DNA of 63,490 nt, counting the filler, from Hausera hauseri (lineage: Eukaryota): assembly GCA_046269625.1 (NCBI GenBank). It is 11 parts of 11 records of this genome, joined end to end, with 100 filler letters (N's around TTAATTAATTAA, not from the genome) between each part and the next. Parts side by side here need not be neighbours in the genome. Positions count along the whole stretch, not along the records: positions 45,460 to 53,301 come from JBJURY010901425.1; 10 more parts are not named here. One strand, 5' to 3'. A program made the position numbers and the translations under genes. The notes under the pieces are model-generated. The model was not told the origin of the DNA and did no database searches. It saw only the letters and a program-made list of their open reading frames with translations. Shown one piece after another: positions 1,089-63,490 of the stretch (position 1 is its first letter; the number at the start of each line of letters is the position of its first letter).

Positions 1089-1106
1089 TGGTGACCCTAG
1101 CAGGAC
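1089..1106 (+). promoter_or_regulatory. Primer-binding site (TGGTGACCCTAGCAGGAC; tRNA-Arg- or tRNA-Trp-like)
   Basis: TGG start a few nt after the LTR end and upstream of gag. The tRNA identity is inferred and ambiguous. Confidence 0.6.
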
Positions 1107-1254
1107 AGTTTGTGCCTCGCTAGACTTGACTCTTGAGAAACCAATTAACGACATACCGGCGAATAGAGCCATCTACATCAAGTAATTGATATAATAGGAA
1201 TCGAACTTTAAATTTTGGGGTTATAAGTCTATAGAAGGGAATAAGTAAATTGAA

Positions 1255-19627: not shown

Positions 19628-19809
19628 TTTCGCGGCGTCTGTGTTACAGTAAGGTGTATAGTTTTTTACATTTTCAAGACTGTTTCGGCAGCAATTATAT
19701 GATACATGAAGTCGGGTTTTATCACTGGACGACTGATCAAACTTCTGCTTATTGTTTTAACGAAGTGTTTATGATTTCATCGATATTTCTGTTTTCGGAA
19801 CTTTCCTGT

Positions 19810-30800: not shown

Positions 30801-31550
30801 AGCATCGAATGAGTCCAATGGAAGAAGACTCGGGGTTTCCTCCAAAAAGAACTAGTAAACCTCCGTATAGCTTTTGGGATTGTCTAACAGACGATGTTTC
30901 AGATAACACTTTGTTGTGTGAGCCTATTAATAATGTTTAATTTGTTTGAATAAGTTAATTTACGTAAGAAAAGATTTTCAAATATATAGTTTTCATAAAT
31001 TGTTATTTCTTGTCTTACACATCTAAAATATGTAATGTAAGAATGAAAGAACAAAAAAATATATTCTCACAGCCTGCCCTATTTGAAATTGTTGATCCAT
31101 TCAGACTGTTTGAACTACTCTGCAAAGACTTCTTATTCATTCATAACTTAAGTAGAATAATTTGAAACATAGCTCGAAGACTTATCTTAATTTCTGATGT
31201 AAAAATTGTCGATGTAATTAGTATATGATAGAAAACCATTGCTTTCCACATTGAAATATCGATACTCTACTCAGAGCAAGAGAATCATCCAAATAATAAA
31301 CAAACGCCACAGTGGTGTACACAGAAAAATATTTCGGGAGTATATTTTTTCAAATCTATAGTACAAACCAACTGCGAGCTACAGTGCGTGTGAAAAGTAT
31401 GTTAACACCTTGTTTTCAATATGAACATGTTTTATTATGTTACGTAATTGNNNNNNNNNNNNNNNNNNNNNNNNNNNNNNNNNNNNNNNNNNNNTTAATT
31501 AATTAANNNNNNNNNNNNNNNNNNNNNNNNNNNNNNNNNNNNNNNNNNNN

Positions 31551-34500
31551 CAGATAAAGGCATAAAAACGCTAAGGATAGAAAATTTGGAGAAGTGTGGA
31601 TACCAGTAGACGAAAATATTCCACCGAAAACGGAGATAATAATTTATGCACAAGATCAGCAAGATGATAAACAACCAGTATATTTTGAACCCGAGGAAAC
31701 CCTAAATCCAAATATAATGCTCAGTATCGTATTGACAAGAGTACACTTCGGACGTGTGCCGACCACAATAGCGAATAATGCACCAACTTCCGTCAAGCTT
31801 CATGCTTATACCACTCTAGGAGACACGTATAGAGTGTCGTCAATAATTATCGAATAAAAACCTTATAAGTATGCTGAATTTTCACCTCATGTCGAAACTA
31901 ACTTCTATCCTGAATCTTATTGTTGATTCTATGATTTACTATGCCGCTACAAATCGGTTATCGCTAAGGACGAAGAAGACATAGGCAGAGCAAAAGCTTT
32001 GAATTTGACTATTCCACTCAAGAAAAAGCCAGATTAGAACGAAGAGATAGACTTGGAGGACCAGAAGATCCCAAAATGGTACCCTCTACCACGTTCACTT
32101 AGACCAGAAATAACGAAGGAAGTCAAAAGAATTCTAAAGGCCGATATAATCCGGCCCAGCTACAGATCTTGGTATTCGCCAATCCTCATGGTTAAAAAGA
32201 AAGGTACCACAAAACACCGATTTTGTATTGATTAGAGCCTTAAATAATCTTATGATGAAAGATTCTTTCCCATTACCATCGGTAAAAGAGGCTTTGGATA
32301 GGCTCTCAGGAGCAAAATGGTTTACCACCCTGGACTTACAATCCGGATATTGGCAAGTGGAGATTGAGGACGAAGCCCGTTATAAGACAGCATTCAAAAC
32401 TCACGATGGTGTTTACGAATTTTATATCATGCCGTTCGGTATTACTACCGGGCCAGCCATATTTACGAGAATGATGAACAAAATGTTAATGGGACTAGAT
32501 CACGCTTTTGCGTACTTAGATGACGTAATGATAGCGTAAAGACAGAAGAGGAACACTTAAAGGACATTGAACATACGCTAATGCGTTTAGAACAAGCCGG
32601 ACTGAAATTAAATCCAAAGAAATACAAATGGGCTCAAAATGCAGTATCCTACCTTGGCCATATAGTTGGAGAAGGAGGATCGAAACCGGATAAATCGTTA
32701 TTAAACAAAATATCGGATTGCATGGAACCATAAAACCAGAAAGAGCTAAGACACTGGTTAGGACTCTGCGGATATTACGCGACCTACGTACCGGATAATT
32801 CAAAAATTAATGCACCTTTATATCATCTGCTTAAAAATGGAATTAAATGGAAATGGACAGACGTCGAACAAAAAGCCTTCGATGAGATGAAGAAGATATT
32901 AACAAGTGAACCTGTTTTACGTTACCCAGACTTTAACTTACCATTTATAATCAAGACAGATGCCAGTAAAGAAGGCATTGGATATGAATTAGCACAGAAG
33001 AGAGGACAAAGAGTTAGAACACCCGATTGCATATGGAGGACGTTCTTTGAAGAAAGCCGAGAAAAATTATTCTGTTACCAAATTAGAAACCCTAGCTGTA
33101 AAAAAAGCACTTCGACATTTTAACGTTTACGTGTACGGGCAGAAAATTATAATTGTCACCGATCACAAGGCCGTTACGACCTTAAAAGGCCGGGCAAATA
33201 ACCCGACATGCAGACTAAATAAGTGGATCGAAGAAATCTCCAGATATAATATCGAATTCCAGTATAAGCCAGAAAATAAGCATGTAGATGCTGATGCGTT
33301 ATCAAGATTAAAGATTAAAACGAGCGCAATTACTGTAATGAAGAAAAGCCAACTCGAAAAGATAATAGATCGTCAACGCGCCTTGACAATGGATAAAGCG
33401 ATTAAAATTTCGACAGAGAGAAGGGATAAAGTCATCCAACAGGTTATAGAATTTGTTAAAAAGGATGTCATACCGAAGGGACGACAGTTAAAGAAACATT
33501 TATACAGACATGGATATAAATACTGCGTCCTAAATGATGAAAACGAAGGAGACATATTATATTACGAACGGAAAGGAAAGAAACTGATAGTTATCCCAAA
33601 AAGTTTACGAACCGAAGTGTTGATGTCAGAACATGACTCATACTTAGCCAGACACATGTCCTAAAAGAAAACACTAGAAAGAATAATGAAAAAATACTTT
33701 TGGCCTAGTATCTATATCGATGTAAAGAATTGGGTAAGCGCTTGTGAAATATGTGCAACTAAACAAAAGAAGTCGAAAATTTACATGGCCGAACTGAAAC
33801 CAATCAATGTGCCAGATAGGCCTATGCAAGCCATGTCAATGGATGTCGTAAAACCTCTTCCTACGACCCACAAGAACAATAAGTACATTTTGACTTGTAT
33901 TGATCAATTAACTCATTTTATCGAATTAGTAGCGCTAATTGATCAAAGAGCAGAAACTTTAGCAGAAGCAGTAGTAAGAAGAATCATTTGTCGATATGGA
34001 CCACCAGATCAAATATTAACGGATCGAGGAAGAAACTTTACCAGTAAACTTTTCGAGATTATCAAAATATTCGAAATCGAACGATTAACAACTACCGCAT
34101 ATTACCCTCAGTGTAATGGAATGGTTGAGCGAATAAATGCAACCGTTATACGAATACCATCAACAGTGGTAGCTAAACACCAAAAAGATTAAGACAAATT
34201 TCTTGAAGGGACTCAATTGGCTATCAATACCACACCACATCCTGCGACGGGATTTACACCATTTTTTATGATGTACGGACGTGAAGCTGTGTTGCCCACA
34301 GATTTAGGAATGACGCCATACGCAGCTAGTCTCGAAGATTTAGAACAGAACTTTGAAAAAGTATTGCAGACACGATTACAAAAATGTTGGGAAATCGCCA
34401 AGGAATTATCTCAAGAATACCAAGAACAATTTAAAATGCAATATGATAAGAAAGTGAAACCACATGATTTGGAACCCGGAAGCTGGGTTTATGTACATTA

Positions 34501-34700
34501 TCCAGTAGCCAAAAAGGCACCTCGTTGAAATTGACCCGCACTGGCAGAGAACCGTATGAAGTTACCCGAGTTACGCCAACCACGGTATATGTCAACAAAA
34601 ACGGAAAGGAAGAAGTTGTGTCAGTACAAAGAGCTGTCAAGACAGAAATACGGCCCAACAAACGTTATAATTTACGCCAACGTGAGGTAAAACTTCCTCA
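31551..34700 (+). mobile_element. pol: Ty3/Gypsy pol (RT-RNase H-integrase), frameshifted
   Basis: LDLQSGYWQV, KTAF, MPFG, YLDD; TDASKEGIG, TDHKA, ADALSR; H...H/C..C zinc finger; MDVVKPLP, TDRGRNF, NGMVERIN. Confidence 0.95.
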
Positions 34701-35775
34701 ATAATTGCTAGACCAATATCATACGTTCAGATAGTTTTGGCATTATCGTTGATTGCATCCTATATTCCAAGAATACAGACGCAATGGTGACATGATGAAT
34801 CTACGCTAAGAGATATATAGGGAATTCGGAAGTATGGATCAAAATCTGAAGCAACTAAAACAGAAAAGAAACCAACAGTTAAAAAAATTCAAAGACAGGA
34901 AGATACTAAATTGTTACAATCAATGACAATTCATTATTACTCGCCAAACGCAGTATGTGTCGGATTTAAGGCTTGGAGACCACACCACTATTTCGGAAGA
35001 TTTCAAATAGGTTTATATGGTGTAACAACAAAAGAAGCGAAGAATTGTGATTTTGAACCTGGAGAAAATATGCAGTGTCGCGACATAGATTTTGGACGTA
35101 CTTATAACCTTACCTATCGCCTGTACTTACCAGACTCAACCGAAGTTTATATTGAAGTAAAACCACGATCTCAATTAGTCATTCCTGCATGGAACAGACA
35201 CCATGGAGTAAAGCCCAGCGAAATGCTACGATCTACCAACCCGGATGTAAGACTATTAGATAAGAATATCCAGAGAATCTCTGTAAATAAGCAAAAACAA
35301 TGCATTCAAGTAGATACTCAAATAGGATTAACTCTTAGCCAAGAAATTAGTATCGTTTTCGAAGCGGTAAACGGAAAAACCCCGAAAATAAATTACTGTT
35401 CTGTACATACCGGTGTGCAACGCCCACGTTGTAAGTTACCAGTAAACCAAGAATTCAAAATAAAACTCGACTTATATGAAATAAGGCCGAATAAACCGAC
35501 CAAACATTTGCAGACTTACTATCCGAAAAATAGAATATGGAAAATCACAGTAGACATGCCTAATAAAAGGCCAACCACTCGAGTTAGTGCCATTACGATA
35601 CCCGTTACGTCAGGCAGTGTGCCTAAAAGAGAATTAGAGAGCATCCCTATTAAATATTCGGCATATCGATCTAAAATTGTGTTCCTTGTGGAAGAGAAGC
35701 AAAATTACGATATACACGTAAGTTGTCGAACAACACATGATAATCAAATTGTAACATTATTTAAAAATACTTATC
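34701..35775 (+). pseudogene. Post-integrase ORF: signal-peptide-like start plus tandem Cys-containing beta-rich (FN3-like) domains, truncated by contig end
   Basis: IVLALSLIASYI hydrophobic stretch in frame with the open frame from 34911. Pattern similarity to 55688-57084. Confidence 0.6.
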
Positions 35776-45459: not shown

Positions 45460-45603
45460 TTTACTGAACCTTGGCGAGATGATATTAATCCATCAGGTTA
45501 TACAGTACCCAGAGATGAAACAGAAAATCATTTTAAAGAAATGATGCATCGAAATAGACAAAATATACATAAAAATCAGCAAAATTCACAAACAATTTGT
45601 TAG
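45460..45603 (+). CDS. 3' end of an unknown ORF converging on viral unit A
   Basis: Open from the contig start: FTEPWRDDINPSGYTVPRDETENHFKEMMHRNRQ...TIC*. Confidence 0.35.
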   Translation, partial: FTEPWRDDINPSGYTVPRDETENHFKEMMHRNRQNIHKNQQNSQTIC

Positions 45604-46059
45604 TGTTAGAAATCATATACGCTAAAAATTTATTTTTATTTATATAAAAAATAAAATTTATTCTCGGGAAAAACAAGAGTCTCTGATAGCCCAGATCATA
45701 CTTTATAACAAATGCAGAAATTTCAGTTCGCACTCTGGGCACGGTGTGAGGGGTGAATATGGGAACGTACACGAATCCGTAAATTTAAAAATAAAAAGTC
45801 AAAAAATCTGTAACCATATTAGCACACAACAAAGAACAAAGAAACAAAGACAAATTTTAACACACAATATTATGATGATTTAGAAATACAACGAATATTA
45901 CAGAATTTGCGTGAAAATGTGTTATTTAAATAAATGTTTAGTTCAACTTTTTATCTTTTCCCTCTATTTATAACTTAATAAAAAATATAAAAACCAAATA
46001 AAAACGAAACAAAGAAATAATAAACAAAGACATTTTTATACATACTAAAATTTATTTTA

Positions 46060-46754
46060 CTACACATAGCTTTCCATAGGTTCTGTATCTGCATCGCTAA
46101 TCCCACAGCTATCGGCATCACTGCTGTCCTCTGCAAGTTTCAAGATAGGCTTGTAACCGTTAGGTGGGTCAGGCTCTGGCACCCGCTCCTCACCTAACGT
46201 ATACTCAACAGCGTTCAGGGCTACTCTCGGGAGTGGAGAGCCGGCTGGACGCTGAACTATTCTCGGATCGAGACACTTACCTAAAAATAATAAAATACAA
46301 AATAAAATAATTAAATACCCTGTTGCCGTTTACCTTTTAGAGCAAAACAAATCAAACAATCGTTTCCCCAATCATAGATCGGAAACGGATTGTGTGAACA
46401 CAAAATCTCTTGTCTGTGCAAATTGTCACAGATATCTTCAGCACTACGTCGAGGTGCGGAATACACATCACGCACAGGGTCACCATCGTCGTCGCTGGCA
46501 AATACTCGGAGAAGACTGCAGAGATGGATCGGATCCTTTATCGAATATACAGTTTGCATTTTCTCATACAGATGAAGAATTTGTTGCATCATGTGCAGGT
46601 TATGTATGCATAAACGGTTGACATGCTGGAGATCGGCTGTCTCCTCTGGTGGGATATTATAGCGGATTTCAACGTTACGAACAAGGTCGCACAAGCTGTC
46701 GATACTATACTGCAATTTAAGCAACTTCGAAAGGAATTCACCGTGTTCACCCAT
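46060..46754 (-). CDS. Viral accessory gene ORF2, copy A: two exons (46754-46319, 46280-46060), 38-nt GT-AG intron; Cys/His-rich
   Basis: Spliced product ...LCSHNPFPIYDWGNDCLICFALKGKRQQG|KCLDPRIVQRPAGSP...TEPMESYV* is colinear with copy B. Confidence 0.75.
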
Positions 46755-46847
46755 TAATAATAAAATAAGACTAGAACAACGAAATATTTATTCACTGTAC
46801 AATCTATTTTTAGCAACACAAATGAGCACCAATCAGATAAAAATTAA

Positions 46848-48370
46848 TCACAAAGTAATGTGGTCATCACGACCCCACGTGTCCTCAATATCGTCAAACG
46901 TAACATTAGCTGGTGCACTGTTGTACTCAGTAGGAACATTTCCAGTATTCAAATAATTAATTTGACTATCTCTACTAATCAACCCCGCCCGCCAAGCATC
47001 TCTTTCTGCAAACGGTATATGGCAGATTTCGCTACACATATGATATGGGCTTAAAATTTCACGATGATAAAGTGGTCTGTAATTTCTAATGTTATCATAA
47101 TTGATAGGAGTATTAAGATCATCATCGTCGTAACTAGGAGAATGAAACAATTCGTCCTGGGAATTTATAGATAAAGATTGATGAGGCGGGATAACTACAG
47201 GAATACCAGTTGGCAAACTACTAATAGGTAATGTGTCACTACTTTCCATAGGAATAACTTGAGGAGTGCTCTGCATCAATGGAGTACCAACGACTTCTAC
47301 TTGTGGTCGCACATATTCACTTGCAAGTTTTCTAAAATCAATTCTATTATCAATCAAAAACCTATCCCTACTTTCATCCGTTTGATACAACATGAAATCG
47401 CCGAACTCATAAAGTAAACAGCGTTTCATGCAGGCCTCTTTCTGACTTAAATCCATCCTTCGAGGCCAGAAGGAGGATTGCGAGTTGTATGTAAAGATTA
47501 CGGGGATACTCGAGGGAACGACAACACTTTTATAGAGTCCCCTAATACTTCGATTGTCATGTATATTATTGCACTGTACAATGCTTAAAAATATGTCAGG
47601 GCAAACTTCCGAAAAACCCACATCATCGAAAATTATTATGTCGTAGTTTGGAGACCACTCTGATGGGGTATCATGCAGGCTATGTAAAATCAACGGGTTC
47701 TTCCCGTGACTTAGGGCGAAACAAGTTTTCCCTATATTGCTCGAACCGAATAATAGGGCTGTATTAACTCCGTTCTCCAAGCGAAACTTAATGGGTGGAA
47801 TAGTAAATATGTATTGCGGATTTGTTTCTATCTTAGGCTTGAACTTATTTGCACAGTATGTCTGCAGTAATTTGTGCCGTGTAACAAACTCCGCACGGTC
47901 TCCCTCTTTCATTATGTTCATTGCTTCCGAGACCGTGGGAGCATCATCAAATAGCCTATACAAGGCTTTCCTACTGTTATTATCTTTGTGCAAATCTATG
48001 GGTGGAGTCCCTAGCTGCATCACGAATGCGTTGTTATTCTTCTCGTGATACTTGTAGACCGCAAAAACGTTACTGCGGAACGGGATGACGTAGAGAAAAT
48101 CAAACAATGTTTTGAACCTGTGTAACCTCATGGGGTTACGCATATAAAACAGATAATGAAGGTGGTGGAAGCCACTTGGTGATGTGTCTTCGACCACCTT
48201 GAGATAAAATTTTACAGACAACGAAATACGAATAAAATTAATCAATCATTACAAGATCATCACCATCGTTAATTTTTGTCACGGCCATAAAATGCCGAAA
48301 TGTCGCGCCTTCTGGTGGCTATACCAACTCCGAAATCTTATCGGGAAATCTCTGTTGTAAAGCATCAGTG
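46848..48370 (-). pseudogene. rep: CRESS-DNA-virus-type Rep (HUH endonuclease + SF3 helicase), copy A, 5'-truncated
   Basis: RCR motif II EDTSPSGFHHLHYL, motif III YKYHEK, Walker A GSSNIGKT, Walker B IIFDD, motif C FTYN. Stop and frameshift at 48240-48325; similarity to copy B ends at 48370. Confidence 0.9.
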
Positions 48371-49623
48371 ACAATGTAACGATTACAATACCAATTAACA
48401 TGACATTCAGTATTCAATTCCAAAATGATTTATACAAATGGAATGAATTAAAAACTCCATATTTCCAACCATACATATGGACAAGAGAAATAAATGATTT
48501 AATGACATATTATGAGTTTTGGAGGCCTAAACATATGAAAGTGAAATTTATGAATGCACAACCAACATATCAAACAGGCACAGTGGACTTTAAAGGAATA
48601 AATCCAGAATGCAGATTACAATTTTTCGTGGACTATAAAAATGTATTTTACAATTACGAAAACAGACCTAATACAGAAATAACAGGTCAAACAGCATTAC
48701 TTGCTTATTGGAATGAAGGATTATTAAAAAATGATAATTATTTATTAGGTTGGAGTACAAGTACAACAAATATTACAACACCAGCGTGGTGCCCAACACG
48801 TACATTACCAATATTAACAGATAATAGAGGAAATCAACCAACAGTTAGGAAATATTATGAACATTTACCATTTCAAAGTGGTGTAACAGAAATTATTGCT
48901 AATGAACCAGACTTATTTACATACGAATACACACCAACTCATGATTATTGGAAACAAACACATTTAAGTGCAATGTTATGGAATTACGTTAAAACTAATA
49001 ATGGAAAAGTCGATAATTCACAATTTGGAACATTAACAGATGATAAAATTCCTTGGATTGCAGACAGATTCGACTACTTACATACAGAAATAATCCAACC
49101 GAATTGGAATACATGTAGTAATTGGTTCAACATAGCTAAGGATGAAATTGTTAGTAAATGCCATTATGATATTAGATTAGATGATAAAACGTACAAAAAT
49201 TGGAAATTAAATTATCATTATGAAACTAGTAGTTTAGGAAAAACTTACGAATATTGGTGGAGGGATACTGATTATATACAAGAAGAAAAACCTATGCCGG
49301 GATTATACTTTAAAATTAGTCCACTTGCAGGAATAGATAACAATGCATGTGCACAAACATGTCAAATGAATGTAACAATAGATTATACATTTGAATTTAC
49401 AAGAAATCAAATAAATGAAATGAGAAGACAAGCTTATATAATGAGTGCGAAAGACACGCAAATACCACTTAAAAGGAAATACTATAAAGCTTGGTTTCCT
49501 GTGTGCCAACCAGTTACAACATTTATCTCTAAAAAGAATAATGAAGGTCACATTACAAGTATAAAAGAAGTATGGGATAAAAAGGACATGCTCAGTAACA
49601 TGTTCAGTTATTACAACGTGTAA
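48371..49623 (+). CDS. Parvovirus-type capsid protein (VP), 5'-truncated, otherwise open (407-aa ORF from 48400)
   Basis: TPYFQPYIWTREINDLMTYYEFWRPKHMKVKFMN...RLQFFVD and KPMPGLYFKISP...QMNVTIDYTFE parallel the parvoviral VP jelly-roll segments (..FRPK.....N..Q.F.D; PPP.I.IK; V.I.WE). Confidence 0.75.
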
Positions 49624-49625
49624 AA

Positions 49626-50243
49626 ATGAATTACAAACTTTTTGAAGACGAAGCGAGAAAAAATGTACATTTCATTATCTCCACTTGTGTTTATGACTTA
49701 CCTGACGATTGTCCAATTGATATGTTACACAATAAATCCAATCTTCCAAAACTTATCAAAAGCATTATTTCAAGCAACGGTGGCAAAGTTAATACAATAC
49801 AATTACTTGGTCCCAGAAATTGCGGCAAATCATTCTTCATCAATTTACTAACAGCTAATAAAAATGTTGGTGCCATTCATAACATGTTTTCGCGCAGTAA
49901 TTTTTGGTGTCAAGATTTAATTGGGAAAGATATTTATGTTGGAGAAGAAATAATGCTTGATCAATTTAATGCTTAATATTTTCTAATGTTAATGGAAGGC
50001 AGTCAATTGACTCGTGCAGAAAATAAATTTCAACATAGTTCGAAGTTACCGAAGAAACCTATGATTATTGCAAGTAACGAGTGTCCGTTTCGTCATGTTA
50101 GTAGTATGTATGATGCGTTCATTGTCCGAAGATTATTGATTACTTTTATAAAACCAATTCAATTCAGTATGCCTATCAATTATGATGATATAGAAGTGCA
50201 GAGGATTTTACAGAGTTTGCGGGATAATGTTTTATTTAAATAA
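49626..50243 (+). pseudogene. Stand-alone parvovirus NS1-type SF3 helicase/ATPase (~205 codons, one premature stop at 49974-49976)
   Basis: KVNTIQLLGPRNCGKS (Walker A), NFWCQD, YVGEE (Walker B), LMEG...ENK, PMIIASN (motif C), AFIVRR. Own ATG 2 nt after the VP stop; no HUH domain; its stop overlaps AATAAA. Confidence 0.85.
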
Positions 50244-50553
50244 ATTTTTTTACTACTTTGCTATGTTTTGGTTTTTTTTTTTTCGTTTTTGGGTGTCCGG
50301 AGCAGTGAAACTATGGGGCAGTGTAGTTAGTGGGGTTATTCTTTTAAAGAATCATTCTAATTCAAACCTAGCTAGTGTGAACGAGCTTACGCAGTGGTCT
50401 GGGCACGGAGTGAGGGTGTAGATGGGCACGTACTCGAATCCGCAACTTTGGTTACAAAAATTCATAAAAAATCTGTTACCATGGAAACGTAAACAAAGAC
50501 ATACGAAACAAAGAACAAAAAACACAAAGACAATTTTAAGTTTGAAATTTTTA

Positions 50554-51214
50554 TTAGACAAAGGAAACCATAGGCTCAGTGTCATCAGTCTCGTTTTCAG
50601 CTTCTTCATCAATTACATCAGAAACCACATACGATCGCGTGGAACACACAGGCCCAGCAACCACCTCATAGCGGTCAACATCAAGGGCTATCCGGGGGCG
50701 TGGAGAGCCGACTGGACGCTGTACTATTTGGGGGTCCAACCACTTTCCTAAAAATAATAAAATAAAAATCGAAAAATAAAATACCTTGTTCCCTCTTACC
50801 TCTCAAGGCAAAACAAATTAAACAGTCATTCCCCCAATCGTAAATAGGAAAGGGGTTATGACTACATAAAATTTCTTGGCGATAGAGACTGTCGCAGATA
50901 TCTTCCGCCACTCGAGGATTACACGAATACACGTCACAAACACCACCATCAGATTCGTCAGCAACACGTAATAGAGAACATAAATGCAAAGGATCCTCAA
51001 TTTGAAATTTTCCTTGCATTTTTTCATATAAAACGAGAATATCGTGCATGAGATTCAAATTATGCAAACACAAACGCGATATGTGTTGCATATCTGTGAT
51101 CTCTTCAGGAGGAAGGTTATACCGTATCTCGACATTCCTCACATGATCACACAAACTGTCAATCGAATATTGTAATTTCAACAATTTGGATAAAAATTCA
51201 GAATTTATAGACAT
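50554..51214 (-). CDS. Viral accessory gene ORF2, copy B: two exons (51214-50785, 50747-50554), 37-nt GT-AG intron
   Basis: ...DCLICFALRGKREQG|KWLDPQIVQRPVGSP...TEPMVSFV*. Intron position is the same as in copy A. Confidence 0.75.
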
Positions 51215-51310
51215 AATGAAATACTAAGTCAAAACAACAAAACTCAGAACTATTTATTACAACTGTACACACATAAAAATAAACACACATAATGAGCATC
51301 CAATAGCAAT

Positions 51311-52933
51311 TTACATAGTATGATGATCATCTTGTCCCCAATCAAAATCTATGTCCGTATAACGCACATATGCAGGTGCAGTATCAACTTCAATTGGAGT
51401 TGCGTCTGTATTGAGATAGTCCACTGGTGCAGGATCAATATAGCACCTTTCCGAGCACACATGAAAAGGTGACAGTACTTGGTTGTGAAAAGTTGGACGA
51501 TAATTTACTACATTAGCTAAAACAGGTGGGCTAACATCATCGAACGACGGTAAATGGAAAAGCTCGTCATCTCGGTAATCCCCACCAACATTAACACTTA
51601 ACGACTGATTATTTGGGATAACTACAGGAATACCACTAGGTAAACTATCTACAACAGGAATAGGAACAGAAATTACAGGGGGCACAACATACTGATCTGC
51701 AAGTCTACGAAAATCTACCTTATTCTCCGTTAAAAATCTATCACGACTCTCGCCCGTCCTGTACAGCATGAAATCTCCGAACTCATGTAAGAGGCAACGT
51801 TTCAGACACGCCTCCTTCTGGGATAAGTCCATCCTTCGAGGCCAAAAGGATGACTGCGAGTTGTACGTAAATATAACTGGGACAGACGACGGGACAACTA
51901 CGGATTTGTACAGGCCTCTTATTGATCGGTTTTCATGAACATGATTGCATTGGACTATTGCAAGAAATATATCGGGACAAACGTCGCTAAACCCTACGTC
52001 GTCGAATATAATTAAATCATATGAGGACGACCACTCTGCAGGTGTGTCGTGTAAACTGTGTAATATTAAAGGGTTCTTGCCGTAGGAGAGAGCATAGCAG
52101 GTTTTGCCTATGTTGCTGCTCCCGAACAACAAGGCAGTATTAACACCCTGATCTAACCTAAAATTAATAGGTGGTATTGTGAAAATATAATTAGTATTAA
52201 CAATTATATTTGGCTTAAATTTTTATGCGCAATAGCTTTGTAATAACTTATGCCGAGTCACGAACTCCGCTCGGTCTCCTTCTTTCATAATATTCATGGC
52301 CTCCGAGACCGAGGGAGCGTCGTCAAATAATCTGTATAGGGCTTTTCTACTATTGTTATCCCTATTAATGTCTATGGGGGGATTACCGAGCTGCATACAA
52401 AACGTTGAAGAATTTACATTTTTATCATGATATTTATATACTGCATAAATATCGCTACGAAAAGGTATAACGTACAAAAAATTGAACAAAGTCTTAAAAC
52501 AATGCAACCGCATCGGATTTCGCATGTAAAATAAAAAGTGAAGGTGGTGGAAACCAGATGGAGAAGTATCCTCCACCACCTTCAGATAAAACTTATAAAG
52601 CAACGACAAGCGAATATAATTACTCATAAGCATGGAAATGTCAATATTATCGTCATATTTCAGGACGGCCATATAATGCCGGAATGTTGCACCTTCTGGT
52701 GGCTGTATTAATTCTTCAATCTTATCCGGAAATCTGGTCTGCAAAGCATGCGTGTAATCATCATTTGAAGGAAACAGGCGAGTATAAACACCATTTCTGG
52801 CATTATGCACTGTGAAATTTTCTCGATACCCCTTTGGAAAAAAAATATTAATATTATTAATAATAAAATAAAAAAATACTTGTTGGTTGCGTTCTTCACG
52901 GCTCATTATCTGACTCTGGGACGATGACGACAT
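51311..52933 (-). pseudogene. rep: CRESS-type Rep, copy B, full length; 1-nt frameshift at ~52225; putative 48-nt intron 52832-52879
   Basis: HHLHFL, YKYHDK, GSSNIGKT, IIFDD, FTYN. Restoring one base joins ORFs 52223-52933 and 51311-52132 colinearly with copy A. Confidence 0.9.
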
Positions 52934-53084
52934 GTAGCAGAAATATGAGACAGTGTATAAATTATTACGAATTTATACAATATCTCATATATTGCATAAC
53001 ACATCATAATACACTGATAAATTATGACGAATGAATAATTGTCCTTTGTATTTAAATATATTTGAAAATCATTCTACTCCTTTT

Positions 53085-53151
53085 TGAGAATGAGCAACCA
53101 ATAATATTAGCTACTATATATAGCTTAATTATTATTGGTTGCTCATTCTCA
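53085..53151. promoter_or_regulatory. Perfect 22-bp inverted repeat (hairpin) upstream of Rep, with a CCAAT in each arm and a central TATATA
   Basis: TGAGAATGAGCAACCAATAATA (53085-53106) pairs with 53130-53151. Inner AGCTA/TAGCT stem. A second hairpin lies at ~53205-53243. Confidence 0.8.
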
Positions 53152-53401
53152 TTTACACATATTCTTTTCTTATGTTTCTAAAAAAAGTATATAGTAGTGC
53201 AGATATTATTTACTATCTACTTACAATAGTAAGTAGTAAATAATTAATAAAAAATTATTATTTACATCGGGTGCATTTTTGATACGGTGAAACAAAGCTA
53301 TNNNNNNNNNNNNNNNNNNNNNNNNNNNNNNNNNNNNNNNNNNNNTTAATTAATTAANNNNNNNNNNNNNNNNNNNNNNNNNNNNNNNNNNNNNNNNNNN
53401 N

Positions 53402-55687
53402 AGCCAAAGACAGCATTCTCCATCGATGAAGGGTTATGGGAGTTTAACAGAATGCCATTCGGATTGAAGAATGGGCCGTCAACATTTCAGAGAGGGACAG
53501 AACTCCTACTGTTAGGCGTCCCGCATGCCATGGTATATATTGACGACGTAATAATAGCGTCACCAAACTTTGAACAACATTTAAAGAACCTACAGAATCT
53601 CTTTGATAGATGCGAAATAATGGGCCTAAAGGTGAATCCAAAAATGTTCATTTGCTCAAGCTGAAGTAGATTTCCTGGGACACCGAGTGGACAGACATAG
53701 CGTCAGACCTCAAGATAAATTATTGGGAAAAATAAGAGACTTTCCAAAACCAAGTACATTTAAATAACTACGTCGGTTCCTAGGTCTGGCAAATTATTAC
53801 CGAAGATTTATAAAGAACTTCAGTCGGATTGCGAAGCCTTTATATGAACTATGAAGAGAAGATCTAGAAACGTTACTATTGACAAGTGAATGCCAAAAAG
53901 CTTTTGAATATTTAAAGGATAGACTGTTAACAGCTCTAATATTGATGTATCCTGATATGATTAAGCCATTCATCTTGGCAACAGACGCAAGCGATTATGG
54001 AATAGGAGCAGTGTTGTCCCAAAAAGGCAAAGATGGAAAAGAAAACCCAGTGGCCTACGCCTCAAGAAAGCTCAACAAACATCAAAAGAAATATGCAGTG
54101 ATTGAAAAAGAACTATTGGCAGTAATATTTGCCTTGGAGGTATCTTTGCCATATATTAGCCAAAATAAACCTCTCTTAATCTATACGGACCATAGACTGC
54201 TTCAATGGCTAAAGCAGCATGAGAATCCAAATAGTAGATTGCTACGATGGGCTCTAAAGTTACAGCCTTATACTCTGAATTTCCAATATAAACCTGGATC
54301 GCGAAACGCAAATGCGGATTACTTATCCAGAATGCCCAACAGACCAGAAACAAAGAAAGCAGTAGTGGCAGCAGTATGGAGCATGGACGGATCTGTAGAG
54401 AAAATAAGGGCAAATCAAAATAAAAACATGGAAATAAGAGCCATCAGGAAGTACATGGAAAACAAAACATTACCGACTGGCAAAGAACCAGCCCGTCACC
54501 TAGCCTGATTCAGTGAAGCTTACGAAGAAAAAAGGATTCCTATACTTTATTCATCAAAACGAACCTACCTTAGTAATTCCAAAGAAAAACAGAGCAGTTT
54601 TGTTAACCCAATACCATGACGGATTACTTGGTGGACACCAATCAGCAAGTAAGACGCTTAATAAATTGAAACAAAAATATTTCTGGCCAACGATAATGAA
54701 AGATGTACAGGAATGGTGCGACAGTTGTAAATTATGTGCTACCCGGAAGAACACGGGATCAAAATACAAAGCACCTCTCAAAGTATGGGACAATACCCCA
54801 GCGCCATTTGAGTTTAATGTAGATGGACTTAACAGGACCATTACCGTTAACACGGAATGGAAATAGATATATTTTAGTCTTTATTCACTATTTTACTCGG
54901 TGGGTTGTTGCCTTAACAATGGCTGATATGAAAGCAGATACAATCCCTGAGAAATTCGTAGAGAACATAGTATTTAATTATGAAGCCCCGAGAATTCTCT
55001 TAACTGACCAAGCATCGAATTTAACCGGAACCATAATGCAATACATATACGATATTTTGAAGACGTTGAATCTACAATCCACACCCGGACATCCAGAAAA
55101 TAATGGGATGGTCGAAAGGTATATTGGAGACTTAAAAGGGAAATTGCAGACGGTGGTAAATACTAGACAGGACGATTGGAATGAATATATTAATGCGTGT
55201 GTTTTTGTAAATTGGACATCGGTCCATGAAGCTACTAAAGAAACACCCTTCTACTTGATGCATTTAAGGGACGCGAGACTACCAATAGATTTGGATTTTA
55301 ACGTGAAACCCACCTCACATGTAATGGAGGTAAAAGAATACAAACAGTTAATGCAGGAACGCCTCCAATTAGCATATAAAACAATTGGAGTAATCAAAAA
55401 CACTATAAATTAAAATATAAGAAGTATTATTATAAGAAGACTAAACAGCCAATAATAAAAAGGGTAAGACATCTAAGTTGGATAGACCATATAAGGGACC
55501 ATATGAAGTAGAAAAAGTGGAACTACCAAACATTTGTTTGAAGAAAAATAATACTTCCTTTAAAGTCCTCATCAATAAATGTAAACCCGCTGCTAAAGAG
55601 ATTGAAGTAAGAAAAAGCGAAAAAGAGCTAGTACAAAGTATTAGTGAGAAAGTAATCGAAGTGGACTCAACAAGTAGACTTGGCTAG
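53402..55687 (+). mobile_element. pol: Ty3/Gypsy pol (RT-RNase H-integrase), frameshifted
   Basis: KTAF, MPFGLKNGPSTFQR, VYIDD; TDASDYGIGAVL, EKELLAV, TDH; H..GGH/C..C; DLTGPLP, TDQASN, NGMVER. Confidence 0.95.
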
Positions 55688-57084
55688 ATAAAAAACTGTC
55701 TACTATTAATAATCATTTTATTATTCCCTGGAGTGCTAGAACAAATGACTAATCAGGAAATTGAACAGGCTAAGATAAGACACGCAACAGCTATAAAAGA
55801 TATGTTAATCAAAAGTTTACAATACTGTATAACGTATTCAAGAAAAGGTCAGAAAAACATGATTTGGAGCACACCTAAGCAAATGCCCCCAGAATATTAA
55901 ATAGGTATACAAGTTATACCCTGGAATGCTAATAGAAGACATCCCAACGATTGACAATTTGACTGTTTACTCCATCCAGAAATTAATGAAACAATATGTG
56001 TAATGGGAAACTCGGGTGTCCACAATATATATCTTACACTTGTTAAGAAAATAAGAGATTATTATAAGAGTCAATACATCAAACTTTACAAATCAATAAA
56101 AATTCCTACAAGACACCAAATGAACGAAACTTTATTAGATGAAATAATACTTAACCAATTAATCGCAAGGTCAATAGGATTTAAGAGCGGAAGAAGTTGT
56201 ATTGAAATCATAACGATGATAGAGTTAGAATAAATATGTTGGATAACTATAGTGATAAAAGAAACCACTACCCAGACAACAACAAAATGTAGAATTACAG
56301 TTGAACACCAACAAGTTTGTTGTAATGTGACACGAGAAAAAATATATAGTATGAACTATACTTTATCCCGAAAAAAATACGGTAAGCTATTAAATAGCTT
56401 AAAACGAGGAGGCCAGCAATGTATATAAGGTATAAAAATCAAAAAGAGTATGATGAAATAAATAAGGAAATAAAACAAGGGGTCACGACACTGGCTGTGC
56501 ACTCTTCGGCTGATAGGAAGGAGATGACAGTTTTTATTAAATCCTATGCTTCTTATTACCGTCAAAAACGTTCTATATGGGATAATGTAACAATTATAGC
56601 ATCCCCTACCGCATTAATTATTTCTATAAAACCAGATCGCGATTTTGTGAAAGTAAAATTCAGTTGTAAGAAACGAGGTGCAGTGGTAGCAAAAGGAGTC
56701 ATAACTCCCGATGATCTGGTAGTACCATGCGCGGCTTTAGACCCCGCTACAAGATACACGGTCATCTTACAGTTATTGGATGACAATGATAATATAACAT
56801 CCACTAAGGTAATATCAGCAGTTACAAAGAAAAACAATAAAATGGGATTTTCATATAAGGTGAATACAGTTAGTTATAAGATAACGAACAAACCCTCACG
56901 AGCGATATATAAACATTCTCGTTGAGAGATGATGTTGATTGAGTCATTAGTTCCAGTAGCGTTTATAGTTATGATAGGAATATTAATTAAAATAATACGG
57001 TTACGATGCAAGAGTAGAAGGAGCTGGGTGCGAATCAATATGCTTGATCTAACAAATCCGTTAGATACGGACAACCCCAGCTGA
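55688..57084 (+). pseudogene. Post-integrase type-I membrane protein ORF: signal peptide, three beta-rich domains (last FN3-like), RQKR site, TM helix
   Basis: CLLLIIILLFPGVL; RQKR; LDPATRYTVILQ; LVPVAFIVMIGILIKII followed by RLRCKSRR. Broken by stops and one frameshift. Confidence 0.65.
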
Positions 57085-57090
57085 CAATTA

Positions 57091-58430
57091 ATGGGAAGTA
57101 CTACAACTGGTGTAGCCCTAAAGTCAGAGATAACCACACGTCATCCGGTTAACTCCTTCTGTAATTTTTATTTAAATAAAACCACAACGATTACCCAAGT
57201 TATTTATATGATAACCGTTGTGTTATATGTAAGTAGTACATCTATATCATCATTGACTATATTCTTTGCAGTACAGCCACTACCTTCCATCAAATTCAAA
57301 CAGTCAGTCGTTCCAAACATTGGCATAGTAATGCCAAAAATCATGTTATAAACGCCAACCCGGCAAATCAGTATTACGTTGTGCACAATGATTATCTAAT
57401 CAGTCTCAATTATCCTCAAACTCAACAAATCCCCAATAATTTAGAAGGATACAGTATGGCCAACCGTTCTCTCGATCTCCCACAATTAACGAAAGCTACA
57501 TCTTTCTTCTTAACAGATATCCTAATATTTCCTGAACGTTTCCATTCAGCAAATTTATTTTGCATCACAGACCAATTCCAAATAAAAACAACAGATAAGA
57601 AAACGTCAATAAAAGGTGACCTGATTAACCTGGATGCCAAACATAGTCTTGCATTTGACCACTTGTTTCCTCAGAACAACTTTTTCAAATTGAGATCTAG
57701 TACAAACCGGATAATCTTTGCTATCGAAGTAATTAAGAATGAAAAATTTTACCCCAGTCTGCCACCAGGAAAGTGTTTCAATTTACCCGATGGAAGGTAG
57801 TGTTAAGGATTGTGTTAAATATAAGAATACATCTTTCTGTCGAATAGACAAAATAATGGATACTGACATAGTCATAGCTGCCGTCAACCTGGCCTATGAC
57901 CAATGGAATCAGCTGCAACCTATTGAAGCATCAATTATGAATCTACATGGTGACACTTTATTCCATGGAATAATAACCCAAGGCAACGAATAAACAACTT
58001 TGACACACATATAACAGGCCTCTCCGAAGGAAACATTAATAAACAACTGGATCCCATAGACTTTTAACGAAAAGTAACTGAAATTATCACTGATAAAGTG
58101 TTGATCGGAGCCGATGTCATCGAGATGGTCGTGAACCATTTCAAATACCCCTCAGGCGGATAGCCGGAGTTCGCGATATACTATATCACGAAGAGGTTAT
58201 CCCCAAATATCAATTGTCAATCGGGTCCTTTAAAGAACTAACCCGTAAGTTCTACGAAACGAAGGGTTTCCCTCTTCGCAGCACTGCTCTAGTACAGTGC
58301 TACCAAGCTATATACCAACAGCTTAAATGGTCAGACGAATTGATAACGCAAAGTACGGCTACCGACGGGTGGCGAACAGCACCAACCACGTCACTGTGGT
58401 CGAAAAACAAAGTTTCAAATGGATGAAACT
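57091..58430 (+). pseudogene. Further decayed coding region of unknown function inside the LTR element
   Basis: Overlapping ORF fragments 57091-57351, 57381-57800, 57739-57993 and 58214-58426. Hydrophobic stretch VIYMITVVLYV. Confidence 0.4.
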
Positions 58431-58561
58431 ATAATAGTCGATGAGGAAGTCTATGAACCAGAAGCCATATGATACAAATCTCGCACTACAGACAAATTCA
58501 TTCACATGCCCCTATCGTTCGATCAATAAATTGGAACAATTTCTTCGACCCGCCATCGAAT

Positions 58562-59240
58562 TGTGTGAAAGTTGACATTTCAACGTAGTGAAAAACATTT
58601 ACGTGAATATTTGACATTTAACACGTACATTTTTAAACGTGACTTGACATTTGGAGAAAAACATTTTAAATGTATATTGCTCTTTAAGGCCGCAGCGACA
58701 TTATTATGTGTAGCATGTAAATTATTTCATTGATTAGTGTATTCACCTGGAATATAGTGTGTAATGTAGAATACTATATAAACTAGTGAAATTTTACGAC
58801 AAGACAGAAAGTTTTGTGAACGTCTTTTGATTCTAACTTTACGCCTTAACGTGAGTATTATTGTTTTGTCACTGTGATTACTATTGCGTATTGATTATAT
58901 GTATTATTGAAATTCGTTATTTGTTGTTATCGAAGTATATATGTAATCAAGTAACATAAATAACTAATAAATAACGTGGCAACTTTGGTCGACCAGGTCA
59001 AACCTACCTGACGACCGCCAAAGTAATAATAAATAACAATATAGAAAAGTAAACAGTAGCAAGTAATTATTAAGTAACGTCACGAACCCCCATACACATT
59101 ACCTACTGACAGATAGGTAAAGTTTGGATATTATTTCTCTGCAAGTTCATCTCGCGTCTAAATAAAAGTGAATTTATTCTCCTCATTAATTAACCCTTAT
59201 TATTGAAGTCTCTCCCAACGTAATTAGTGAGGAGTGAACA
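58562..59240 (+). repeat. Putative LTR (left boundary uncertain, 58562 or ~58707)
   Basis: Non-coding; ACTATATAAAC at ~58773 as in the contig-1 LTR; AATAAA at 59161; ends ...GAACA 3 nt before the PBS. Confidence 0.55.
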
Positions 59241-59243
59241 AAC

Positions 59244-59262
59244 TGGTGTTGTGACCCGGGAT
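59244..59262 (+). promoter_or_regulatory. Primer-binding site, tRNA-His-like (TGGTGTTGTGACCCGGGAT)
   Basis: Resembles the complement of the tRNA-His 3' end (TGGTGCCGTGAC...). Lies between the LTR end and gag. Confidence 0.65.
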
Positions 59263-59387
59263 CTTATTTAAGGACCTTTACATTATAAATAGCAAAATTA
59301 CGACAAGAAAAGGAATGTTATACCAACAAGGAATAAAACGAACCGTACGGATTAGAATATTTACAAAATTTAAGTGAAGAAGAATCA

Positions 59388-60530
59388 ATGGCAAACAATA
59401 ATATAGAACAGGTGATTCAGCCGAAGGCTGACCTCACCCTACCGATGAAGAAATTTTCGGGAAAAGAAGACAATATGAAGTATATTCCAGAAGTTTTGGA
59501 TGGGGCGATAAACAAAGAGTAGAGGGATTACCTCTCCACCTAAAAGGAACGGCTCTCATGAATATATTTTCAAATGCCGGATGACGACAAGAAGGACTGA
59601 AAAGGAATTAAAGAAAAACTGCCCCAGAAGTTTTTAATAGATCCCTCGGGAAAGGGGAGAATTGAAGAGTTTATAAGAAGGAGGCAACGGAAAGACGAAA
59701 CAGTCCAAGACTTTGTCTATGCATTGGAAAAGCTAGCGGCTAGAGCACATCCCGACGTTATAATAAAAAACAATGCATTGTTAGCTCAATTCCAGTATGG
59801 AATGGAAGAAAGGTTGAGGACAATAATCTCTCAAGCAGACCCAGCTACATTTCAAGAAGCAATAAGGAAGGCACGAAAAGCCGAACGAGATGCGGAACTA
59901 TGTAGGTGGAATAAGTCCAAAAGTAGAAATAATAACTACGATAAAAGAAGAAACAATGGTACACAATAGTATCAACCATACGAAAAGAATAGAAGCCCTT
60001 CACAAACGTCAGCTACAGAAGCTGAGTCAGATGTAGAAAAGAAAGTAAGATTCAATTTGAGGAACGATGGAGAAAAGACAATTTATAAAAAGAAATCCAA
60101 AAAGGATGGAAGAGCGTTACCCAACAAAGACTCCGAAGGAATATTGAACTGTTTTAACTGTAATAAATACGGACATATAGCGAAATCATGTAGATCACGT
60201 AGAGGAGATCTCTCGAAATCAAGTAATAAGAATAAACAACAAAAGAAAGATTACACATCAGCCACGTCAGATGAATCGTCCGATAAAGAATATGAAACGG
60301 AGGATAGTGTTAGGGAACATGAAGTTAAGAGAAAGAATAAGAAAAAAGAAAGTGTTAATTATATAAACTATACACTATGTCAAAGCATGAAGAAACAATT
60401 AGAAATGGAGTTGAAAGATTACAAGACACATCAGCAAAGACTAAAAGAAAGTAGTATTTATATGATAGGGGATCAACCGGAGAAAAAGGTATCCCATCAA
60501 AGAAGAAGAAAGGTAATAAAAAATAATTGA
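59388..60530 (+). pseudogene. gag: Ty3/Gypsy gag, degraded
   Basis: KKFSGKED, LPLHLKGTA, RRQRKDETVQDFVYALEKLA, PATFQEAI, CFNCNKYGHIAKSC. Confidence 0.9.
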
Positions 60531-60639
60531 CATAGATGTTGGATGAAGAGAAACATCAACAGAGAGGGAAGCGGTAGGAAAGGAAAAGAAAAGAGGAAGA
60601 AAGAAAAGTAACCTGAGTATACCCTCGTTTGGTCAGGAT

Positions 60640-61785
60640 GAAGCTCAAACGAAACCAATATTTGATGAAACTATATTAGAACAAGTAATAAAGAACTCAG
60701 GTGTAGATCTAGACGAAGAAGACGATATTATCCAAGCAGTAATGACTATTGACCCCAATAATATATGTGATGTAGATAAAACGACTACTACGATACTGAA
60801 GGTAATTACCAATAAAGTGCCAGTAGAAAGGATAAACGAAATATTACCTCAGTTGGTTTTATTGGCCCAAGATATTAGCACGGTGAGAGAGATAACAAGG
60901 ACCGTATTGGCCAAGGCCGCTGAAGATGAGAAAGGAAGAAATGAAACTATGAGAGAAACAGTAAGAGAAGGGAACTAAGACATGAGATTTATACGAATGA
61001 ACGAAATAGACGACATACAAGCTTTACGAGAAAAGATAGAAGAGTTGGAACCATTCTATCAAGGAAGTACTTATGGATTAAATTATAACGGAAGAACGCT
61101 ATATAGGTATGATAGGTTATTGAGAATTGGATGTAGAAAAGAGAACTATAACTCAATATTTATAACCGAGATACATCCAGAAGCGAGAGCGCAGGCAACG
61201 ATGGATAATATCCTAAGCAAAATGGAACCATAGGAAGTAGAAGGATCGCCCGTAGGCGATATTCAAGATGTTACGGTCCAAACAGAAGCTAAAAGAACAG
61301 GTAGACCAAAAGGAACAAAGATTAGTGATATTTGCGACAAGAAAGACAAAAACGAATAAATAGTAAAACGTTTATTATTGGAAGGAACAAACGTTACACC
61401 TGAATCTGTGGCCTTAGATCCCTTATTATAAACCGTACTGGCCAAATTACATACATCATTCGCCTCCTTTCACATGCAAGTAATAATTCCAGATGGGCTA
61501 TTCCAAACCTTACGTAATAATATATTACGGATTATTAGGCAATTTTATGAGAATCTAGACGAAGAACGGATAAACGAATTACATGAATTAGATATTTTGG
61601 AAAAGATGTTCGCAACGGGTATTACACGAGAGAAAGCGCAAACTGCCATATCCTACCTTCTATATAAAATAATAGTAATCAACCATGAAACTTAAAATTT
61701 AGAACAGATCGAACGAAATATAAAGACAGCTGTCAAAATTTTAAAAGATACGTTTGGAAATTGGATCCATTGTAGAGGTGGTTGG
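60640..61785 (+). pseudogene. Unknown helical coding region between gag and the env-like ORF
   Basis: ORFs starting at 60742, 60982, 61474, 61786 and 62365 are all in one frame and separated only by stops. Confidence 0.55.
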
Positions 61786-61890
61786 TTGACCAGTCTAATA
61801 ACCAACATAACAAGAACAGGAGAACGAAAAAGATTAATAGACACGCCGATTTTGACTCAATCAAACACTTCTAGACCAGGTATAACCGGT

Positions 61891-62664
61891 ATGTCAATAA
61901 TGGAGATCCTACAAATCCTCTTAATAACGTCATTAATAATGCCAAAAGCCGTAGGTACAGTCGCATACCACTGCTCCAAGCCTAGCGAAGGACAGAAGTA
62001 CTCTTTAGTTGATTTTGAGAAATGTCCAAAAGCCGACCCAAAACAGTTAACAACAACAAGTGGCCTCGCATATTGGGTTTATCAGGAATCTGAATTTATA
62101 AAGGTGAAAGTTAGGGAATGTTACGTCAAGAGATCATTTTTCCTGTTTCATTGTGCCTATTATTCTGGAAATTTGGCCATCATCGAGCCCACAACACCTT
62201 TTGAACCAATAATAATATCCCGAGCGGAATGTCAGGATGTCTTTAAGATTGGTACAGTAACTATTCACGATGCACCCATACTTGCCGTTAGAAATAGAAT
62301 AAAGTACACCAGAATCTTCAGAGCAGGAAGAATAGATAAAACAATGGAAGGCACATGTAAATGAGTGGATTACGACGTTGGAGGTACCATCGCATCTAGA
62401 ACGGTAGCAATTGAGGATTTCCAGGTTCAATTGAAAGAATACGAAGTACTATTTGACTCACAAACGAAATTAATGACAACATTGTTGAAGGAAGGAAAGT
62501 TCAACAAGACAGTAAGTAAAACGGCTGAGAAGGACACAGCTACGTATAAAGAAGGAACAAAGGAAGTTAAGATGACGGAAGTAGCTACTATTGTGTATTC
62601 AGAAAACCTAGAGGAAATGATGCGATTTAAAATCACTGGAGTGGTAAGTAAATGTACAGTATGA
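61891..62664 (+). pseudogene. env: Env-like glycoprotein (class III, gB/chuvirus-type), N-terminal part with internal deletions
   Basis: Signal-like MEILQILLITSLIMPKAVG, then AYHC...YSLVDFEKC...VYQ...VRECYV...FHCAY...ISRAEC...G.CK. Confidence 0.7.
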
Positions 62665-62905
62665 CTGATGATAACAATATCAAATATGATCAGGTAAAAG
62701 TAAAATCAAAGCACAATCAAATAACTAGCATTAAGCAACTGGCACTGAAGTCACGAAAAGAAAAGTACAGGCAAAAGTTGGTGACGAACTTACATCATCT
62801 AGATCCCGTAGATGAATATCATGGACAAATATATAACGAACGACCATTGGTGAATCCCTCAGTCCTCGATACGTAGTACATACGGGACTGTACCCTATAC
62901 ATCAA

Positions 62906-63409
62906 GTGCAACAGATGAAACAAAGTTTTGACGAAAATCTGACACCTTATAAATGTGAACCTACATATAAAACGGATGATAAAATCGAACGGCAATCACC
63001 CATAAGACCAGAGATAGAGATAGAGGTGAATGGATATCCATTGATGGTTCCGTTAGATACTGGATCCACGACAACAATAATGGGAAGGAGCCAAATGACA
63101 AAAAATTTAAAAAGGAAGCTAAGAAGACCGACAACTACGTTAATAAATGTAGGAGCATTCGGTACAGAAGAGGAAATTAAAATGGTCATAAATGCCGAGA
63201 TTAAGATTGGTAAACAAATTTTAAAGCACATAATAAGAATAGCAGACAACCTGACTAATGAAATCCTAATTGGGTGCGATATATTAAGTCAATTGGAAAA
63301 CACTTACATAGATGTGAGAACAGGTCAACTTAAGACTTTCATTGAAGATCAAAATGGAGGGATGGTTTCATTAACAAAAGATATCATATCCCACCACGAT
63401 CCAAGATAG
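62906..63409 (+). pseudogene. Retropepsin (aspartic protease), start of pol
   Basis: IEVNGYPLMVPLDTGS...ILIGCDIL. Confidence 0.92.
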
Positions 63410-63490
63410 TGGTGTCTGGAACAGTAAAAAGTAAATCATTACCTGAGGTAATTCACTTTGAACCATTCCCACAAGTTATGGAAAAATACG

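Follow-up and report, generated by a model that had tools for sequence, protein, structure and literature searches.

Elements that pair two helicases of different lineages have been on record in planarians since 2002-2011, which limits the surprise of the locus described here, an array of virus-like genes in a draft assembly of Hausera hauseri (GCA_046269625.1). One such element, PEVE, was reportedly described by Rebrikov et al. in 2002 as about 7.5 kb long, with two unique regions flanked by inverted repeats. PEVE is extrachromosomal in Girardia tigrina, and PIVE is integrated in Schmidtea mediterranea (Liu et al. 2011, PMC3198968). In the available parts of that paper, the text of Fig. S7, which comes without branch lines, has the PEVE large segment together with PIVE_3p following circo-, nano- and geminivirus Reps, section 8 places the PEVE small segment, like PIVE_1p, with parvoviruses, and PPV_E1_C is among the domains in the Fig. 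5B legend; PMC6186406, as far as available, also describes the PEVE/PIVE elements as encoding a Rep. The window analyzed here is the whole stretch of 63,490 nucleotides (filler included), made of short contigs joined by N-linkers, and the finding is confined to one contig, positions 45460-53301 (JBJURY010901425.1), with N-linkers on both sides. We read this contig, with a probability of roughly 70%, as three partial, broken copies of what is likely one chimeric single-stranded DNA (ssDNA) virus that combines a Rep of the CRESS (circular, Rep-encoding ssDNA) type, a parvovirus-like capsid and a separate, nuclease-less superfamily 3 (SF3) helicase.

The initial annotation of this contig had proposed a CRESS Rep, a separate parvovirus-side SF3 helicase and a parvovirus-type capsid in one unit, with a layout from no named family. 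The combination stands, with the capsid as a probable one, but the claim of an unprecedented layout does not, because the available parts of PMC3198968 already record the two-helicase design in PEVE/PIVE. As described there, those elements share with this one a CRESS-side Rep and a second helicase on the parvovirus/E1 side, and PPV_E1_C, drawn in Fig. 5B, is the best-scoring family of the helicase found here. A capsid is not named in the available text of PMC3198968 or PMC6186406, whereas a probable capsid gene (VP) is present in this contig. The element may work like PEVE/PIVE, a likeness drawn from published description. The long inverted repeats reported for PEVE are absent from this contig, which has hairpins only, although its copies are truncated. 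In the literature covered, with subscription papers and Repbase outside that coverage, the same layout was found only in PEVE/PIVE, and a layout with a capsid is not described in the available parts of PMC5013282, PMC9241645, PMC10269781, PMC13055364 or bioRxiv 551184. What is added here is the probable capsid, the linkage in two strains and the reading of capsid and helicase as a packaging module.

Membership of the Parvoviridae, the Bidnaviridae and the cruciviruses fails on the features tested. The helicase lies on the NS1 side and a VP motif resembles the parvoviral one, but NS1 fuses nuclease and helicase, whereas here a CRESS-type Rep, encoded on the opposite strand, bears the putative nuclease, and the single HUH-SF3 NS1 of parvoviruses is absent. 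Parvo-like hybrid virus/NIH-CQV pairs a circovirus-like Rep with a parvovirus-like capsid in two genes and is not known to have a second helicase. Bidnaviruses combine a parvovirus-derived jelly-roll capsid with a stand-alone superfamily 3 helicase (S3H) that lacks a nuclease domain, according to the available part of PMC4061559. A stand-alone S3H beside a parvovirus-like capsid occurs here as well; the difference is that bidnaviruses have a protein-primed DNA polymerase (PolB) and terminal inverted repeats, whereas the Rep of this element is of predicted HUH-SF3 type, and a PolB frame was not found in 45460-53301. The best Rep matches in IMG/VR come from cruciviruses and related unclassified CRESS viruses; the closest, mostly crucivirus Reps, are 22-33% identical over the matched segments. 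Because six of the ten larger Rep-bearing IMG/VR contigs scanned carry a crucivirus-like S-domain capsid, this Rep lineage appears to pair with foreign capsids, but the crucivirus capsid is tombus-like, whereas VP has no PF00729 match. Among 671 open reading frames (ORFs) from 51 loci, some of them duplicated, none matches VP, the helicase or exon 1 of the gene here called ORF2 (best E 0.11), and exact look-up of 10 translations from the contig found none of them (0/10). One 4.2-kb IMG/VR contig, L055, holds two P-loop ORFs of ~297 aa, one of them with a Viral_Rep match, and possibly represents two Rep genes or a chimera.

Self-comparison of the contig resolves three partial copies, C, A and B, all in the same direction. 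From left to right, a high-depth repeat is followed by the copy C remnant, copy A and copy B, with these features (position, strand where assigned, description, and basis in brackets):

45565-45703 (approximate): repeat of very high depth, probably a host flank of the array (summed contig depth)
45734-45866: copy C remnant, with the conserved spacer core and a GT-rich tract (77% over 124 nt; repeat families D5/D9/D13)
45869-45939, plus: copy A helicase 3' end, comprising the last ~21 codons, the stop and AATAAA (83% over 71 nt to 50179-50249)
46060-46754, minus: copy A ORF2, predicted to be spliced (38-nt intron 46281-46318), 218 aa, Cys/His-rich, of no family
46848-48365, minus: copy A Rep, a 465-codon open stretch (46848-48245) with an upstream remnant, cut at ~48365 (profile, 90 bits)
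48365-49623, plus: copy B probable VP, 5'-truncated, a 420-codon open frame (ESM Atlas, PDB segment, VP profile)
49626-50243, plus: copy B SF3 helicase of 205 codons, lacking a nuclease domain and interrupted by a stop at codon 117 (Pfam, PDB, tree)
50244-50553: convergent terminator/spacer, holding a doubtful 'small ORF'
50554-51214, minus: copy B ORF2, predicted to be spliced (37-nt intron 50748-50784), 207 aa
51311-52933, minus: copy B Rep, with a putative HUH domain, an SF3 domain and a ~150-aa tail, stop at codon 237 (profile, 75 bits)
52943-52990, plus: hairpin 1, with AATTATTAC (52960-52968) at its tip as candidate nick site (z -7.1)
53085-53151: hairpin 2, with 22-bp perfect arms, a candidate two-way promoter (z -11.2)
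53204-53249: hairpin 3 (z -5.5)

Copy A runs from the helicase end, which converges on ORF2 and Rep, to a cut at ~48365; copy B runs from VP, cut at the same place, through the helicase to the opposing ORF2 and Rep and the hairpins beyond. The copies are 71% identical between 47311-48365 and 51687-52749 and 69% identical between 46217-46740 and 50684-51200; shorter repeats join 45869-45939 to the end of the copy B helicase and 45734-45854 to the spacer at 50398-50519. The genes and hairpins thus lie where the initial annotation had placed them, but the single intact genome that it assumed is replaced by an array of broken tandem copies: VP and Rep A are both cut at one junction near 48365, and the copy B Rep and helicase each carry one in-frame stop. 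The array is most likely an endogenous family of broken virus copies, because reads show many diverged copies.

Linkage of the two halves of the element carries the main argument. In both copy A and copy B the end of the helicase lies tail-to-tail with ORF2-Rep; its distance from the ORF2 stop is about 126 nt in A and 310 nt in B. The copy A helicase end keeps frame and peptide, and its alignment score of 82 compares with a maximum of 37 in 300 shuffles. Between A and B, the proportions of nonsynonymous (pN) and synonymous (pS) differences are 0.19 and 0.87 over 428 codons of Rep, with synonymous sites saturated, and 0.20 and 0.97 over 146 codons of ORF2 exon 1, which is 75% identical in amino acids. 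Since synonymous sites are saturated between these linked copies, A and B are separate strains, with purifying selection between them, and since the tail-to-tail junction recurs in two copies of such divergence, chance juxtaposition of the helicase and ORF2-Rep halves is largely excluded on this comparison. The alternative of independent insertions lying side by side, which the initial annotation had named as fatal to its proposal, is countered by a copy A helicase end that stands tail-to-tail with its own ORF2.

The minus-strand Rep at 51311-52933 is confirmed. Rep B is 74% identical to Rep A, whose start region has one frameshift and one stop. Near the Rep B start, an AT-rich stretch of 48 nt with GT...AG ends (52835-52882, minus strand) looks by eye like a probable in-frame intron. 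A reference set of 23 viral contigs of 1.9-6.2 kb was fished by the Walker A-B motif from Rep, and all ten of the fished Reps that were tested match Viral_Rep or Gemini_AL1. Against the profile built from these 23 CRESS Reps, Rep A scores 90 bits, Rep B 75 bits and the separate helicase 3.9 bits; the portion of Rep beyond the fishing motif scores 24 bits, with shuffles reaching up to 5.9. The CRESS HUH nuclease is defined by motifs I (UUTU), II (HUH) and III (YxxK) in the available part of PMC6668415. In an 8-row Rep alignment, motif II (HHLH, with its H) and motif III (YxxK) are invariant, as are the CRESS-type SF3 features Walker A and B, motif C and the Arg finger, and both Reps are placed among 25 CRESS Reps in a 41-row tree. 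On these grounds the Rep is classed as CRESS-type. Direct Rep searches (Pfam, word-based protein search, PDB) gave no match; word-based searches also missed CRESS Reps of ~25% identity, and a blank there does not speak against kinship to PEVE/PIVE. A tblastn search of plasmids and phages returned only E >= 1, a PHROGs search returned nothing under E 0.17, and an AlphaFold model of Rep (pLDDT 29) was not used.

The helicase at 49626-50243 is likewise confirmed on the plus strand: it begins 2 nt 3' of the VP stop, and its own stop overlaps AATAAA. Because its start follows the VP stop so closely, it is taken to lack a nuclease domain. Walker A lies near residue 62, and the break at codon 117 looks copy-specific, because 17 related contigs differ within that stop codon. 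Scanned as a read-through with the stop codon as X, the helicase scores 26.9 bits to Pfam PPV_E1_C (cut-off 26.5) and E 4.6e-4 to Parvo_NS1; its best PDB match is an NS1 (E 9e-5), followed by Rep40 of adeno-associated virus (AAV; E 0.09). It groups with 13 parvoviral NS1 domains with support of 98/95 in the 41-row tree, which has long branches and an unsettled bootstrap and leaves out papillomavirus E1. By these comparisons the protein is a nuclease-less SF3 helicase of NS1/E1 type, on the parvovirus/papillomavirus side, and the proposal of two helicases from different lineages is borne out by the profile scores, Pfam and the tree.

VP is found on the plus strand as annotated (frame 48361-49623), but it is no intact gene, its 5' end being cut at the 5'-truncated Rep A. 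The top ESM Atlas cluster for VP scores 0.97 (224/256 features; members 25% Denso_VP4 and 14% VP1_2), in a control where shuffled proteins reach 0.95 once in 100; the next clusters are anello-, smaco- and parvovirus capsids, of which the anello- and smacovirus ones score 0.95. A 92-aa segment, picked for PDB search by a motif, gave four matches at E 0.13-1.6, including two VP2 chains and one major capsid protein. Against a profile of 13 parvoviral VPs, 2/13 of them checked as Parvo_coat, VP scores 12.3 bits and shuffles reach at most 7.0; the profile uses 13 of 15 fished contigs, as L028 and L036 have no VP frame bearing the motif. An AlphaFold model (pLDDT 31) was not used. VP is probably an ssDNA-virus jelly-roll capsid protein, and its parvoviral affinity is our best call from these comparisons, weakly held. 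One IMG/VR contig, L060, was considered as a Rep plus parvoviral-capsid contig and rejected, since its match is a PLA2-like domain in a protein unrelated to VP. L060 in itself encodes, at 2-1393 (minus strand), a CRESS-type Rep with an opposite-strand protein that has a parvovirus-type PLA2-like domain (PF08398).

Two read runs contain the stretch: X1, which is possibly the source sample and thus not independent support, and X2, from another study under another organism label. In X1, 625 of the 983 contigs on the stretch are less than 95% alike to it, from which we conclude that many diverged copies exist; in X2, parts of Rep, VP and helicase occur at low depth. Three X1 contigs extend VP upstream with differing letters, which identifies VP as truncated in this contig. 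All copies present are partial, and a free form was not found. Summed contig depth, which is not copy number, reaches 14,362 in the bin 45460-45721, with up to 42 variant contigs, as opposed to about 10-14 beside it; depth over the repeat at 45565-45703 is high in X2 too, and that repeat has no second copy in the window. The high-depth left end fits a host repeat flank, and integration of a multi-copy element into the host genome is likely, because the copies are many and diverged and the left end runs into this repeat. The copies could instead belong to a rolling-circle transposon of viral descent that now spreads within the genome and forms no particles. The many diverged copies and the head-to-tail array with truncated ends would fit such an element, and ssDNA virus-like transposons and repetitive virus-like elements have precedents (PMC3198968, section 8, as available); we nevertheless consider it improbable, because the element has kept a second helicase and a capsid frame open over 420 codons, neither of which transposition would need, and the divergence between A and B far exceeds that of a recent burst. 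An assembly artefact in which similar repeats were strung together, or free viral DNA that entered the host assembly, appears very improbable as the source of the array. This is a short stand-alone contig in a repeat-rich draft, and no read contig spans the whole stretch, but one independently assembled X1 contig (47928-48394) crosses the Rep A/VP junction with zero differences, at 1-2 letters below the tool's 31-letter bridging threshold there; copies at 71% identity are too different for collapse, and stops and truncations speak against free viral DNA.

Several observations weigh against the reading of one chimeric virus. The reference sets were fished with motifs from the window, so that profile scores lean favorable; taken by itself, the nuclease half of Rep reaches 5.9 bits in A and 1.3 bits in B, with shuffles up to 3.7, and because of this low score the nuclease assignment rests on motifs II and III, motif I being atypical in the 8-row alignment. 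VP has an Atlas recognition value of 1759, below the 2300 mark, and no Pfam family; its C-terminal segment has no parvoviral PDB match, and no homologue was found in a full HMMER scan of 1.84 billion protein representatives. VP also came up blank in the word-based search (near lengths only), IMG/VR, JGI metagenomes and a VP motif scan. Searches of IMG/VR with the Rep pair, VP and helicase, and of JGI metagenomes with the Rep pair and VP, recovered no locus elsewhere that shares this linkage; the helicase, too, had no homologue in IMG/VR or in the word-based search (near lengths only). No unique host gene was found flanking the array in this one contig. None of the contigs listed bridges 50243-50340, an interval in which the poly-T at 50256-50296 is passed over by the mapping tool. 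At the helicase end summed depth is 138, and the bins that follow have 2-24; because of this drop most helicase copies are without demonstrated continuation into a B-like spacer. GC content at third codon positions (GC3) is lower in VP (0.22) and helicase (0.28) than in Rep and ORF2 (0.37-0.45). The difference in GC3, the drop in depth and the lack of a bridge among the contigs listed would also suit two co-infecting replicons, a parvovirus-like one with VP and helicase and a CRESS one with Rep and ORF2 (segments, or helper and satellite), joined during integration, and in GenBank the two PEVE helicases indeed appear under 'large segment' and 'small segment' (PMC3198968, in its available part). 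Such an origin seems unlikely, since two strains with saturated synonymous divergence share this tail-to-tail junction, placed at the poly(A) signal of the helicase, and since the non-coding spacer differs even between A and B, which can account for the drop in depth.

The spliced, minus-strand ORF2 of the initial annotation gains a second copy to the left, and both are open after predicted splicing; in A and B alike, a 37-38-nt GT-AG intron is kept that leaves the frame open. Introns of this length fit tiny-intron animals such as flatworms. A regulatory role for ORF2 would be a guess. The 'small ORF' in the spacer is not established as a gene: its frame is not kept between copies and it has no Pfam match above the cut-off, although two copies agree at 77% over its 124-nt core; by eye it overlaps the apparent poly(A) downstream tract of ORF2. 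The three hairpins beyond Rep are confirmed, each with 0/200 shuffles as stable, and may represent a terminus or else an origin; hairpin matches in Rfam all stayed below threshold. CRESS origins have a stem-loop with the nonamer consensus NANTATTAC. Four matches to it occur in the contig, three outside the right-end hairpins and one in hairpin 1, which is thus a candidate origin with both stem-loop and nonamer; its AATTATTAC, at 52960, is 27 nt away from where Rep starts on the other strand. Each arm of hairpin 2 bears a CCAAT-type motif, which is found again upstream of ORF2 in copy B (3 matches in the window vs 0.17 expected); in copy A, at 46821, it is 1 nt shorter, and that occurrence alone is matched by 16/100 shuffles.

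Under the one-virus reading, Rep would nick the AATTATTAC hairpin and drive rolling-circle copying. Hairpin 2 may act as a two-way promoter, leftwards for Rep and rightwards, if the DNA is a circle or concatemer, for VP and helicase; the rightward promoter is proposed because the mirror CCAAT copy points right, where VP would follow in such a form. VP and helicase would constitute a parvovirus-derived assembly module in which the small helicase may be the packaging motor of the capsid, by analogy with AAV Rep40/52; efficient packaging in AAV depends on its small Reps, in which the origin-binding domain is absent, according to the available part of PMC12713660. Different strains would have entered the germ line repeatedly and then decayed. 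We tentatively suggest, at somewhat less than even odds, an unclassified ssDNA virus family of animals in which a CRESS replicon from the crucivirus side is combined with a capsid-packaging module of parvoviral origin, either independent of PEVE or with PEVE/PIVE as capsid-encoding members. Such a family would be the rolling-circle counterpart of bidnaviruses: parvoviral capsid and SF3 motor would have moved together, as one assembly module, between unrelated replicons, onto PolB in bidnaviruses and onto a CRESS Rep here. A natural genome would then show the parvoviral helicase in its packaging role apart from its role in replication, and the long-orphaned PEVE/PIVE would gain a testable identity as viruses with a capsid.

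Elsewhere in the window, neighboring contigs with fragments of long terminal repeat (LTR) retrotransposons and kinases point to a eukaryotic draft genome; the host is presumably an animal. Gypsy-type LTR retrotransposon fragments occur at 53402-63490, 1-4053 and 31507-35775, some followed by frames that look env-like by eye, and Pfam identifies RNase H and integrase at 53855-55410. Broken protein kinase frames (Pkinase, Pfam) at 18659-20346 on the minus strand resemble a processed pseudogene by eye. On a separate contig, unlinked to the array, broken frames at 20640-23057 look by eye like a Polinton-type protein-primed DNA polymerase; Pfam searches with three pieces of this region gave no match. 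A tandem array of a 106-nt unit, in about 10.7 copies, occupies 10326-11452.

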